Part shown: in pieces, positions 1-9,179 of the stretch | Layout: each line of letters begins with the position of its first letter | How positions within the stretch are numbered: position 1 is the stretch's first letter | DNA from: Minisyncoccia bacterium | GTDB taxonomy: Bacteria; Patescibacteriota; Minisyncoccia; Phycocordibacterales; Phycocordibacteraceae | Length of the DNA stretch: 34,573 nt | NCBI GenBank assembly: GCA_038212075.1 | Contig: JBBQUV010000006.1 | Location: 1 to 34,573, forward strand | Direction of reading: 5' to 3' | Position numbers and translations under genes: made by a program | Notes under the pieces: generated by a model | What the model was told of the DNA's origin: nothing | The model's database searches: none | Seen by the model: the letters and a program-made list of their open reading frames with translations, nothing else

Positions 1-31
1 CACAATTACTGGTTTTTTCACCCATTCGCTT

Positions 32-193
32 GGCAGGTGCGCGCCAAAGAGAGACCAGAGTTTAGTCTTTGGCGCGCACCTACCTACGCTCATTCTCTGC
101 GTACCGAAATGTTCCGGTGCAGATGCATTGGATTTTGAGCACTAAACTTTGGTCTCTGATCAAAATCAATGCATCAAGCCGGTTTCGTTTTTT
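32..193. ncRNA. Putative structured RNA/DNA element: two long hairpins with mutually complementary loops
   Basis: Stem 35-50/66-81 is a perfect 16 bp. Stem 122-138/160-175 has one bulge and is extended by CGAAA..CCGG/CCGG.TTTCG. Loop 51-65 is complementary to 142-156 at 14/15. A T-tract follows at 188-193 on +. Confidence 0.55.
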
Positions 194-1346
194 ACCGAAT
201 CAAAGCGTCAAACTGTTTTACGGTCGCTTCTTCAAGGGTTTTGTGGAGGGCGCTCACTTCGTCGTTTGTAAGTGTGCGGTCAATGGAGCGGTAGGTAATG
301 CGGTACGCGTAGCTTACGTTTCCGGCACCAAGTTTCGCTTCGTTTTCATACTTATCGAGAAGTTCCACTTGTTCAGCGAGATCACCAAGCACATCGCGTA
401 CCAAATCAAAGTAATTGTTCGGTACAAAGTCATTTTTTACGACAAACGAAATATCGCGTACCACCGGTGGGTACTTGCTCACTTCTTTAAATACGTTTCC
501 AAGCACGAGCTGTTTTTTAATGCGCTCGTCTTTGCTCCACAGCAAGCGAATGTCAGGGAGTGCCATTGAAATAATGGCGAGGCGTTCAATACCAAACCCG
601 AAGGCCCAGCCGTGATAGCCCTCCACACCCATTTTGGTGAATACTGATTTCTTTGGCATGCCGCTTCCCAGTACTTCAAGCCATTCGCCACGTGCAGGCC
701 CTTCGGCGGCCGTGCCTTTTACGTTCACCTCTACTTCAAATGAGGGGTCGGTATAGGGGAAGGTGTCAGTGTTTACACGGAACTGCATTTGGGGGCCGAA
801 GACGGTATGCACGATTTCACCGAGTACGTTTTTCAAATCTTCCGGTTCAACCGGTTCGGAATCAGGAGCGATATACCACCCACCGAGCTGGTGAAAGATA
901 TTCATGTGGCGGCTGTCTATTTCGTCTTTACGGTAGACCTTGCCAAAGCAGAGCGCGCCCATGCTTTCGCCTTTAGCAATGCGTTCTTTGATAGTTGGAT
1001 GGTTTAAGTAGTAGTACCAAAAGACCGTGTCGTGCGTACGCAGAATATTAGTATCGTCTATGTAGTAGGTATCGCTTTTGGAGCGCGCTGGGTGGTCGGC
1101 AGGGAAGTCAAAGAGATCAAACGAAATGTCTGCCGGCACAATTTCCGGGATTTCAATAATATCGAAATTGGCAAGGCGGGGCACGTTCTTCACTCGTTCG
1201 GTTATTTCATACAAAGGGCTCCCTTGGGTACGGGAAAGGTCGGGCATGGCAAGGTATCGCTTTATGCGCTCGGCTTCAGCGTCGGTGCGGCCGTCAAGGC
1301 TCTGTCGCAGGCGCACTTCTTCGTCTTTTGAAATCTTGATGTCCAT
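192..1346 (-). CDS. pheS: Monomeric organellar-type phenylalanyl-tRNA synthetase (alpha catalytic domain + C-terminal ferredoxin-fold anticodon-binding domain)
   Basis: Motifs HPARSKSDTYY, LRTH, YRKDEIDSRH, FPYTDPS, WLEVLG, GWAFGFGIERLA, DIRLLW, then an FDX-ACB-like tail (KYPPVVRDISF...YRITYRSIDRTLT). Start moved to ATG 1346 because the upstream ORF extension crosses a terminator. Confidence 0.92.
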   Translation of the reverse strand: MDIKISKDEEVRLRQSLDGRTDAEAERIKRYLAMPDLSRTQGSPLYEITERVKNVPRLANFDIIEIPEIVPADISFDLFDFPADHPARSKSDTYYIDDTNILRTHDTVFWYYYLNHPTIKERIAKGESMGALCFGKVYRKDEIDSRHMNIFHQLGGWYIAPDSEPVEPEDLKNVLGEIVHTVFGPQMQFRVNTDTFPYTDPSFEVEVNVKGTAAEGPARGEWLEVLGSGMPKKSVFTKMGVEGYHGWAFGFGIERLAIISMALPDIRLLWSKDERIKKQLVLGNVFKEVSKYPPVVRDISFVVKNDFVPNNYFDLVRDVLGDLAEQVELLDKYENEAKLGAGNVSYAYRITYRSIDRTLTNDEVSALHKTLEEATVKQFDALIR

Positions 1347-1364
1347 TGCGCCTAAATATAGCAG

Positions 1365-1422
1365 AAAATAAAACGAAAGGGCCACCACTGCTGAGGTGGG
1401 GCCCTTTGGCACAATCTGTGCC
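1365..1422 (-). terminator. Intrinsic terminator (two hairpins + U-tract) of the 74-aa orphan
   Basis: GGCACA/TGTGCC (1408-1422) and AAAGGGCC..GGCCCTTT (1376-1407), followed by CGTTTTATTTT on the minus strand. Confidence 0.7.
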
Positions 1423-1431
1423 GATGCGCCG

Positions 1432-1656
1432 TTAGCGCATGTCGAGCGGCTCGATGTACGAGGTGTGAACGGGTGTTGAAATGTCACCGTCGTCGCCTTC
1501 GAACAGCACCTGCTTGTAAGCGACGCCGTCAGCGGTACCTTCGACCATGCCGACAGTGCCGGCCTTGATGGTGCCGCGGCCGTCAGGCAGCTTCACTGGA
1601 ATGTCCTTGGTCGCACGAACAATCGTCTCGGGGTTAAAAGAGCCTCTTCCTGACAT
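1432..1656 (-). CDS. Small hypothetical protein (74 aa), possibly an SH3/KOW-like beta barrel
   Basis: ATG preceded by AAGGGA, upstream TTGACA, own terminator, strongly biased codons (all four Lys = AAG). Pattern VRATKDI..IKAGTVGMV..QVLFE. Confidence 0.65.
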   Translation of the reverse strand: MSGRGSFNPETIVRATKDIPVKLPDGRGTIKAGTVGMVEGTADGVAYKQVLFEGDDGDISTPVHTSYIEPLDMR

Positions 1657-1807
1657 TGGGTAATCCCTTGGTTGTTTCCGTGACTTCACGAGTCACATAT
1701 ACTGTTTTACTCCGAAAGTATAATTTGTCAAATATACTGGATGATAAAACGGAGGTATTTTTGGCAGAAATTGCGATCATTTTGTGATACAATTATGGCA
1801 AGAAACC

Positions 1808-3874
1808 ATGGCGAAAGGCGAGGAAACAAAGGGTAAAAAAGCGTCCTATGACGCCTCTTCCATTACCGTTCTTGAAGGTCTTGAACCGGTGCGAAAGCGT
1901 CCGGGAATGTACATCGGCACCACGGGGCCCGATGGTCTTCACCACCTGATTTGGGAAATTTTTGATAACTCACGCGACGAAGCCATGGGCGGTTTTGCGA
2001 ATGATATTGAAGTGGCGCTTCTTCCGGGCGGGTATGTGCGCGTGGTAGACAACGGCCGTGGTATTCCGGTTGGCATCCACCCAAAGACAAAAATTTCGGC
2101 ACTTGAAATGGTGATGACCACGCTTCACGCCGGTGGTAAATTCGGCGGCGAAGATTCCGGATACAAAGTGTCGGGCGGACTCCACGGCGTGGGTGCATCG
2201 GTGGTGAACGCGCTTTCTACGAACGCCAAAGTGATTGTGCACAAAGACGGTGGGGTGCATATGCAGGAATACAAAATTGGTAAGCCGCTTGGAAAGGTGA
2301 AGCAGATTGGAAAGACAAAACTGAATGGCACCATCACGTACTTCTGTCCGGACACCACCATTTTCACAGCGGGTATTGAATGGAACTGGGACAAGATTGT
2401 GAACCACTTGCGCCAGCAGGCGTACTTGGTGAAGGGAACGCGCATCACGGTGATAGACGCCCGCGAAGAAACAGCCGCAGGCATGGATGACGATTCGTTC
2501 TATTTGCGCGAGCTTAATCTACAGGTGCCGTCGATGGCGTTCTACTTTGAAGGCGGCCTGCGCTCGCTTGTGGCATTTTACAATCAGCACCAAACACCGG
2601 TACACAAAAACATTTTCTACGTTGACCGCGAACAAGATGGCGTTGCGGTGGAGGTGGCGCTTCAGTATGTAGACGACATCACACCGCGTCTGTCTGCATT
2701 TGCAAACAACATCTACAATCCGGAACACGGTACCCACGTGACCGGATTTAAAACAGCACTTACGCGCACACTAAACGCATACGGACGTACCGCGAACATT
2801 TTAAAAGAAAGTGAAGAGAACTTTACCGGTGACGATGCGCTTGAAGGTATCACCGCTGTGGTGTCGGTGAAAATGCCGGAGATTCAGTTTGAAGGACAAA
2901 CAAAAGGAAAGCTTGGAAGTGTGGAAGCTCAGGGTGCTGTGGCAACGGTTTTTGGTACTGCGTTTGCCGCTTTCCTTGAAGAAAATCCAGACGACGCCCG
3001 CGCCATCATAAATAAAGTACTGCTTGCGCTTAAAGCGCGTAAGGCCGCAAAGGCCGCAAAAGACTCTGTGCTCCGTAAGGGCGCTCTAGAGGGCATGACG
3101 CTTCCCGGGAAGCTCGCCGACTGCCAAGTGAAGTCTCCGGAAGAAGCCGAGCTCTTCATTGTGGAGGGAGATTCAGCAGGTGGTTCGGCGAAGACGGGAC
3201 GTGACCGTCGCACGCAAGCTATTCTTCCGCTTCGTGGCAAAATTTTGAACATTGAGCGGGCGCGCCTTGACCGCATGCTTGCGAGCGAGCAGATTCGTAA
3301 TCTTGTGGTTGCGCTTGGCACCGCCATCGGCGACGTGTTCGATCTTTCAAAATTGCGCTATCACAAAATCATCATCGCGACCGACGCCGACGTGGACGGC
3401 GCGCACATCCGTACCCTTTTGCTCACTCTTTTGTATCGCCACTTCCGCGCCATCATTGACGGCGGGTTTATTTACATTGCTCAGCCACCACTCTTTAAGG
3501 TCGCTCAGGGAAAAGATGTGCGCTACGCGTATTCAGACCAAGAGCGCGATGCCGTGCTGAAAGAGATGGGTGTAAAAAGTGGGGAGATTGAAACGGTCGG
3601 AGAAGGTGGCGATGAGGGTGGGGAAGAAGTAGAAGAAGATGTGGCAACAAAATCAAAGAAAGCTCGCGTTCAGCGTTACAAAGGTCTTGGAGAAATGAAT
3701 CCGTCCGAGCTTTGGGAGACAACGATGGATCCGGCTCGTCGCGTGTTGAAACAGGTGACTATTGAAGACGGGCAAGAGGCAGATCGCATCTTTGATATTT
3801 TGATGGGTAGCGATGTTGCAAGCCGTAAGTCATTCATTCAGTCAAACGCGAAACTCGCGAATTTGGATATTTAA
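1808..3874 (+). CDS. gyrB: DNA gyrase subunit B
   Basis: LEGLEPVRKRPGMYIG, LHAGGKFGG, SGGLHGVG, EGDSAGGS, PLRGKILN, TDADVDGAHI, QRYKGLGEMN; extended -10 TGaTACAAT upstream. Confidence 0.97.
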   Translation: MAKGEETKGKKASYDASSITVLEGLEPVRKRPGMYIGTTGPDGLHHLIWEIFDNSRDEAMGGFANDIEVALLPGGYVRVVDNGRGIPVGIHPKTKISALEMVMTTLHAGGKFGGEDSGYKVSGGLHGVGASVVNALSTNAKVIVHKDGGVHMQEYKIGKPLGKVKQIGKTKLNGTITYFCPDTTIFTAGIEWNWDKIVNHLRQQAYLVKGTRITVIDAREETAAGMDDDSFYLRELNLQVPSMAFYFEGGLRSLVAFYNQHQTPVHKNIFYVDREQDGVAVEVALQYVDDITPRLSAFANNIYNPEHGTHVTGFKTALTRTLNAYGRTANILKESEENFTGDDALEGITAVVSVKMPEIQFEGQTKGKLGSVEAQGAVATVFGTAFAAFLEENPDDARAIINKVLLALKARKAAKAAKDSVLRKGALEGMTLPGKLADCQVKSPEEAELFIVEGDSAGGSAKTGRDRRTQAILPLRGKILNIERARLDRMLASEQIRNLVVALGTAIGDVFDLSKLRYHKIIIATDADVDGAHIRTLLLTLLYRHFRAIIDGGFIYIAQPPLFKVAQGKDVRYAYSDQERDAVLKEMGVKSGEIETVGEGGDEGGEEVEEDVATKSKKARVQRYKGLGEMNPSELWETTMDPARRVLKQVTIEDGQEADRIFDILMGSDVASRKSFIQSNAKLANLDI

Positions 3875-3878
3875 AGAG

Positions 3879-3924
3879 ACAAAAAGAAAAGCGCCGCCCG
3901 AAAGGGCGGCGCTTTTCTTTTTGT
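3879..3924. terminator. Bidirectional intrinsic terminator
   Basis: Perfect 21-bp inverted repeat ACAAAAAGAAAAGCGCCGCCC-GAAA-GGGCGGCGCTTTTCTTTTTGT between convergent genes. Confidence 0.92.
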
Positions 3925-9135: not shown

Positions 9136-9179
9136 TAAAACAAAAACCCCGCGGCTTTCGCCGCGGGGTTTTTGTTTTA
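9136..9179. terminator. Bidirectional intrinsic terminator
   Basis: Perfect 20-bp inverted repeat TAAAACAAAAACCCCGCGGC-TTTC-GCCGCGGGGTTTTTGTTTTA between convergent genes. Confidence 0.92.

Follow-up and report, generated by a model that had tools for sequence, protein, structure and literature searches.

The two hairpins at the beginning of the window, a 34.6-kb stretch of DNA corresponding to contig C6 in a Patescibacteria genome of 691 kb (G000; 10 contigs, 100% complete), are two separate inverted members of an uncatalogued intergenic hairpin ('rod') repeat family of one Patescibacteria genus. The best reading of these two copies, A and B, is probably that of a non-autonomous structured mobile repeat of the REP/ERIC/MITE-like type. 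Of the readings offered by a first-pass annotation of the same DNA, that of a single-stranded DNA mobility substrate comes closest to this conclusion, although the unit is each hairpin element and not the pair, as had been proposed.

Hairpin A has arms at 32-50/66-84 (19 nt, 95% complementary with one mismatch, 15 nt in between), within which 35-50/66-81 form a perfect 16-bp core with the loop GAGACCAGAGTTTAG. Hairpin B is built from arms at 122-135/162-175 (14 nt, 86%) and 131-141/157-167 (11 nt, 91%), with outer pairs at about 105-117/178-190 in the MFE fold, and a small hairpin at 85-89/99-103 is present in the MFE folds of both strands. The 17-mers at 50-66 and 141-157 are reverse complements at 16/17 positions (94%). 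With up to two mismatches, the window contains this 17-mer two times where 0.03 occurrences are expected, and none of 100 shuffles reaches two; folding of the 200-nt segment gives z-scores of -6.8 (+ strand) and -7.7 (- strand), and not one of 200 shuffles is equally stable. Chance is excluded as the origin of the complementarity, and the hairpins and complementary 17-mers that the annotation had described are all present. In Rfam 15, at E <= 10, window positions 1-3000 give only a sub-threshold chance hit to snoZ17, which scores 24 bits where the gathering score is 44 (E 0.28).

Members of the family are scattered over the genome. With up to three mismatches, the 17-mer occurs five times in G000, each time as a hairpin loop and each time on a different stem, and its exact pattern is found in none of 40 related genomes. 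A census of hairpins in G000 yielded a sixth copy, the loop of which has a one-base deletion, and a covariance model (R1) built from these six copies gives eight full-length matches of 43.6-89.6 bits in the genome, located on contigs C3 (two), C4, C5 (two), C6 (two), and C10. A probable ninth copy at C3:19467-19548 has the same flanking words with another loop and scores 22.6 bits. Beyond the twin, G000 holds six to seven copies, and these are solitary. The annotation had named against its own proposal the case in which the 17-mer is a common dispersed repeat lacking covariation; a dispersed repeat it is, but one that always lies in a hairpin loop and whose stems covary.

Copy A occupies 17-100 on the + strand in the orientation of the model, with the loop AGAGACCAGAGTTTAGT (R1 88.6 bits, E 6.8e-29; 76.7 bits with R2, a broader model described below). 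Its main helix and apical loop lie at 32-84, with a C.A mismatch at 34/82 and the loop at 51-65, and its conserved 17-mer (50-66, + strand) comprises the loop plus the closing A-T pair. The 3' flank of copy A, which carries the TACGCTC motif, and the A-B spacer together take up 85-106 and contain the small hairpin. Copy B occupies 107-190 on the - strand in model orientation, with the loop AGAGACCAAAGTTTAGT (R1 65.3 bits, E 2.5e-20; R2 60.7 bits); its main helix and apical loop lie at 122-175, and its 17-mer (141-157, - strand) has one substitution relative to that of copy A. Of the six copies whose 17-mer loop is best preserved, copy B is the most diverged, with one bulge and one mismatch. 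The annotation was correct at the level of sequence in calling the two stems unrelated. However, both copies match one covariance model despite their unlike stems, and they are therefore diverged homologues. They are arranged tail to tail in opposite orientation, with their stems 37 nt apart, and it is because they are oppositely oriented copies of one repeat that their loops are complementary.

In model orientation, the consensus reads ..CGCTY-GGCAYG..(19-bp stem)..AAAG-(AGAGACC N2-3 AGTTTAGT)-CTTT..CRTGCC-TNCGCTC.., which corresponds to a short outer helix, a small internal loop formed by the words GCTY and TNCGC, and a main helix of 19 bp. The apical loop of the element is 13-31 nt long and contains two conserved words, AGRGNCC ... 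YWAGT, which take the form AGAGACC-NN-AGTTTAGT in G000. A role of the word GAGACC (GGTCTC on the other strand) as a restriction site was considered and rejected, since its 164 occurrences in the genome, against 155.5 expected, show neither avoidance nor enrichment. A guide or protospacer role of the variable stems was likewise discarded, as 12-mers of window positions 1-120 match elsewhere at chance level (eight non-family matches).

The stems are held together by covariation, one of the checks that the annotation had recommended. Among the eight G000 copies, both sides change in 16 of the 19 stem pairs, and 93.3% of the cells remain paired against 65.3% in shuffles (0/500 reach the observed value) and at most 50% with slid partners; the fitting of the alignment to the model biases these figures towards the structure. 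The loop has a mean pairwise identity of 0.87, as against 0.48 and 0.49 for the two arms and about 0.6 for the nearest flanks. Because the arms drift while the pairs and the loop stay, it is the pairing and the loop sequence that are kept, and the sequence of the stem is free. The loop of the copies in another genome of the genus, G063, contains an inserted mini-hairpin that has a compensating change of its own.

The two strands of the element are not equivalent. The non-Watson-Crick pairs in the main stems of 17 members comprise nine A.C, one G.T, and five other mismatches, and an A.C pair in model orientation is a G.U pair on the complementary strand. When 15-nt flanks are included, 15 of the 17 members fold more stably on the complementary strand and one folds less stably there; without flanks, the figures are nine and three. 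These counts include related copies and are not independent. For copy A, the values are -37.9 kcal/mol on the + strand versus -42.1 on the - strand, and the extra copies from G054, G016, and G060 have the same strand preference, though they are close kin. In addition, the internal loops around a GC/GC step place GA opposite GA on the folding strand and UC opposite UC on the other; tandem G.A pairs stabilise helices. From the better fold on the complement, the tolerance of G.U, and the GA/GA loops, it follows that the functional form is single-stranded and strand-specific.

The folding strand is the - strand for hairpin A, which is the sense strand of pheS and of a GT2 glycosyltransferase gene, and the + strand for hairpin B. 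Relative to the upstream gene, the folding strand in G000 is the same in four cases, opposite in four, and convergent in one. There is also no replication-strand bias of the G000 copies as judged by GC skew, which is weak (4 against 5). As the folding strand follows neither the genes nor GC skew in any fixed way, an intermediate autonomous to the element fits better than a 3' UTR signal of the host.

All eight clear copies of G000 and the probable ninth are intergenic and lie 7-85 nt past a stop codon, next to unrelated genes that encode PheRS, an MscS-like channel, a methylase, PrsW, a class I aaRS, an MFS protein, UbiA, and rplL. In the window, the neighbouring gene outside the element is pheS (192-1370, - strand), which by Pfam encodes a monomeric-type phenylalanyl-tRNA synthetase (tRNA-synt_2d + FDX-ACB); 17 nt separate its stop codon from the copy B stem. 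Its longest open reading frame extends to 1487, and relatives align from about residue 37-47. A class II core and FDX-ACB in a single chain is what we take to be the architecture of mitochondrial PheRS. Near-full or long matches to this PheRS (E 3e-108 or better) are found in only 8 of 40 congeners sampled, and G003 and G054 match it only over the core, at about 36-37%; two types of PheRS appear to alternate within one genus.

Comparison with relatives points to insertion. In G000, at least 191 nt separate PheRS from GT2, compared with about 29-42 nt in 7 of 8 congeners; of 30 metagenome loci, 22 have a spacer of 20-49 nt and 8 one of 80-852 nt. Between the aaRS and PrsW genes there are 132 nt in G000 versus roughly 10-70 nt in 11/11 congener loci. 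The distance from a gene for a 189-aa protein to the MscS-like gene is 225 nt in G000 and 76-145 nt in 9 of 11 congener loci, the remaining two having 216 and 392 nt. These spacers were compared by length, the nearest relatives being only about 65-82% identical. No family member was detected in the PheRS loci of nine congeners or in 80 metagenome PheRS loci. These sequence comparisons show that the copies were inserted into spacers, directly behind the stop codons of unrelated housekeeping genes.

The PheRS-GT2 spacer holds other structures in relatives. In G016 (L146:257-334), a hairpin of another kind is present there, with a perfect 24-bp stem and a loop of 6 nt; its base, GGCACG, resembles the base of the family stem, and it scores 14.7 bits with R1. 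In three metagenome loci of relatives (L147:1867-2049, L156:3652-3845, and L161:3655-3968), the spacer carries a conserved, strongly folding leader of ~130 nt, directly 5' of the GT2 start codon, that begins GGGAAAAG...GGCAAGGC. Rfam gives nothing for it at E <= 0.01, and it may be a riboswitch-like leader that is not yet catalogued.

In relatives, the GT2 gene follows pheS on the same strand. In G000, it lies at the very end of contig C8 with about its first five codons missing, and the gap between C6 and C8 is therefore probably short. Comparison of 12-mers gave no contig-end overlap. Contig C6 begins 31 nt before hairpin A, and a unitig of a DNA run (Logan) starts at position 45, inside hairpin A. 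The repeat, or its palindrome, probably caused the assembly break between the two contigs.

Two pairs of copies lie within 1 kb of each other, A-B and C3:19467/C3:20248, that is, 2 of the 36 possible pairs in G000, and simple arithmetic for nine random positions in 691 kb gives about 0.1 such pairs. Both share the tail-to-tail arrangement. Close pairing of copies in one spacer most likely comes from local hopping or from a favoured landing place; it does not point to a two-hairpin machine. The pair on C3 encloses, in inverted orientation, the gene for the 189-aa protein (C3:19638-20204, L012:891-1460). A composite transposon was rejected here, because the gene is a single-copy core gene (52/60 congeners) with rplL-X-MscS synteny in 11/11 loci examined. 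The protein itself has no Pfam or NCBIfam match, and visual inspection suggests a possible winged helix at its N-terminus.

Within the genus, the family was traced with R2, which was built from 16 sequences of three genomes in an alignment with three rows offset by one column. It is found in 6 of 150 genomes, with 8 copies in G000, 22 in G002, 11 in G054, 2 in G063, 2 in G060, and 1 in G016, figures that are a lower bound since scans of more than 40 genomes used stricter filters. The loops vary between genomes and have AGRGNCC...YWAGT in common. A loop pattern with 15 specified bases has 84 single matches in public genome contigs, and none of 80 loci examined exceeds 26.5 bits with R1, against 43.6-89.6 for the true copies; a 21-nt pattern with 20 specified bases has no match in public metagenome contigs. 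In G054, at least seven near-identical copies lie at unrelated loci, with a unit of about 125 nt that ends in CTAGAGC/GCTCTAG. The copy on contig C4 of G000 keeps similar outer arms, and most G000 copies lack them. The family is thus patchy between genomes, with young, near-identical copies in some. Young copies in one genome, old copies in another, and absence from most are the marks of a multiplying element.

Much of this evidence would also be compatible with elements that act as RNA at the level of the host, an explanation that we hold to be unlikely but that deserves serious weight. The copies would then be either hairpins at the 3' end of the upstream mRNA, serving to stabilise or terminate it, or a multi-copy family of small RNAs of ~80 nt, with the conserved loop as a protein- or RNA-binding site and with duplication being secondary. 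The strong covariation around a conserved single-stranded loop, the fold on one strand with its tolerance of G.U and its GA/GA internal loops, the position of the copies shortly after stop codons, and the retention of the loop in old copies all agree with such a role, as does a T5-6 run on the folding strand 3' of several copies (C4, C6B, G002_a, G002_b). However, the folding strand is the sense of the upstream gene in only four of the eight oriented G000 copies, so that a 3' UTR role would present the wrong strand half the time. Moreover, no conserved promoter at a fixed distance was seen by eye and none emerged from the window scan, the spacers at the same sites are short in relatives, and the family is missing in 144 of the 150 searched genomes of the genus, which makes it dispensable.

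The twin itself does not resemble an intrinsic terminator, as a scan found no terminator-like site in 1-200 and the loops are 15 nt long. The T6 run that the annotation had pointed to is present on the + strand at 188-193, but it overlaps the stop codon of pheS (192-194, - strand). The canonical terminators of G000 are perfect bidirectional hairpins at most gene ends, with stems of 13-21 bp and loops of 2-8 nt, flanked by an A run at one end and by a T run at the opposite end, for example at window positions 3879-3924 and 9136-9179. These long terminator hairpins are a class distinct from the repeat studied here.

Returning to the mobile repeat as the preferred reading, the elements may spread by copy-and-paste through a single-stranded intermediate, DNA or RNA, that folds on one strand. 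A putative trans-acting protein, for which no gene is recognisable in G000, would bind to the conserved apical loop and to the internal loops, which are rich in purines. The loop complementarity of the twin is a geometric by-product of opposite orientation. In G000, there is no match to Y1_Tnp (PF01797, E <= 0.01; control genomes match), TnpB, IS110 DEDD, Nop (PF01798), or RVT_1. Among the five other element-bearing congeners, Y1_Tnp is found in three, versus 72 of 149 genomes in a sample of the genus; being no commoner in genomes with the element, it shows no significant association with it. The best Y1 gene of G054 has its nearest element about 1 kb off, with other open reading frames between, and RT was found in only one of five genomes tested. 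The Y1_Tnp matches of the genus often consist of several open reading frames of ~220-250 aa that cover only the C-terminal two thirds of the profile, and these may be a divergent multi-copy HUH family.

By eye, no target-site duplication was seen in ten copies (eight of G054, two of G060), and the flanking CGCTY words belong to the repeated unit. The rod yields inverted ends, CTAGAGC/GCTCTAG in G054, and among the Y1, TnpB, and IS110 families no parent IS was seen. Against the mobile-repeat reading stands the age of the G000 copies, whose arms are 48% identical and which have nevertheless kept the loop. Selection at each locus, that is, a host-level function, explains this more easily than does selfish spread alone. 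A further proposal, rather doubtful and put forward as conjecture, is that these are structured mobile 'rods' of Patescibacteria that copy themselves via a strand-specific single-stranded hairpin, whose apical loop and G.A-rich internal loops would be bound by an enzyme that lies outside known transposase families or is supplied externally, for instance by a phage or by the host of the episymbiont. If this were true, copies in both orientations would give rise to transcripts with mutually complementary 15-17-nt loops, and the twin would be the first site at which to test a coupling of neighbouring mRNAs.

The annotation had favoured, among other ideas, an ncRNA of ~180 nt over positions 32-193, held together by a kissing-loop pseudoknot of 15-17 bp or switching between two folds. 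This is very improbable. The complementarity of the loops, the stability of an isolated duplex of the 17-mers (-25.1 kcal/mol on the + strand and -21.3 on the - strand), and a region that folds far better than shuffles might suggest such an RNA. However, the same loop recurs in the six to seven solitary copies elsewhere, orientation alone explains the complementarity, and a nested fold that pairs the 17-mers is 15-22 kcal/mol worse than the two hairpins. For topological reasons, a full 15-17-bp loop-loop helix between two closed loops is hindered unless the stems open. The pair is also absent from this spacer in relatives, and no twin occurs in the other five family-bearing genomes among the matches listed. 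The transcript that the annotation had imagined, on the + strand and convergent with pheS, finds no driver: a consensus scan gave no promoter-like site in 1-1600, the CACAAT put forward as a -10 is no more than the start of the contig (positions 1-6), and the GT2 gene lies on the same strand as pheS, leaving no neighbouring gene to drive transcription of the + strand.

An invertible DNA switch, in which a site-specific recombinase would use the inverted 17-bp sites to flip the 74-bp segment lying between pheS and GT2, is scarcely credible. The repeats do lie 74 bp apart, and the genome has one tyrosine recombinase gene. However, this sole recombinase, presumably the housekeeping Xer enzyme, is encoded on a separate contig (C2), the proposed sites are simply the loops of a dispersed repeat that elsewhere occurs as single copies, and the segment contains no promoter-like site.

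Mobile repeats of comparable design exist elsewhere in bacteria. ERIC/IRU, the Correia/NEMIS elements of Neisseria, and the pneumococcal BOX and RUP are rod-forming intergenic repeats or MITEs. The present family resembles ERIC-type rods and MITEs in that these are imperfect palindromes of ~80-130 nt with a rod fold, situated in intergenic, often transcribed DNA at gene ends and present or absent in relatives. There are also significant differences: the family has no sequence relationship to them, it folds on one strand with G.A-type internal loops, and neither a duplication nor a parent IS was seen. A GTAG-type head is the REP motif, and none was noticed in the hairpin copies. REP, BIME, and REPIN sequences of Pseudomonas and enterobacteria are mobilised by RAYT (Y1 HUH) transposases (PMC3116915, PMC3337134). 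They are similar to our family in being short non-coding palindromic repeats between genes, non-autonomous, with lineage-specific copy numbers and at times in inverted pairs, and in having a single-strand hairpin as the presumed substrate. Unlike here, where the stem drifts and the apical loop is kept, the sequence of the REP palindrome is conserved. Copy numbers are 1-22 here versus hundreds for REP. In contrast to a REPIN, A and B have no arm-to-arm pairing; only their 17-mers are complementary, and forcing them into a helix has the cost given above. As regards RAYT, whose gene REPs typically flank in the same genome, G000 has no Y1 gene and the Y1 genes of the genus do not track the family.

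TIGR-Tas systems of phages and parasitic bacteria are also similar in having hairpins with variable palindromic stems and short conserved loop words (PMC12045711). TIGR hairpins, however, are arrayed in tandem next to a gene for Tas, a protein with a Nop domain, and variable spacers occupy the loops. A TIGR-Tas array was rejected for the present family, since its copies are dispersed singles with a loop identity of 0.87 and PF01798 has no match in G000. The family may be placed with the REP/ERIC/MITE-like kind and seems not to be in print, a limited search by title and abstract having returned no work that describes palindromic repeats or MITEs of this sort in Patescibacteria or the candidate phyla radiation.

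Overall, the twin is explained by two inverted repeat copies and ought not to enter catalogues as a new kissing-loop RNA. As a practical point, these elements break assemblies. Finally, selfish DNA is generally held to be purged from genomes smaller than 1 Mb. In contrast, this genus, in which a known transposase is not seen travelling along with the family, holds 1-22 copies per bearing genome of a structured element with a drifting stem, a kept loop, and a one-strand fold.
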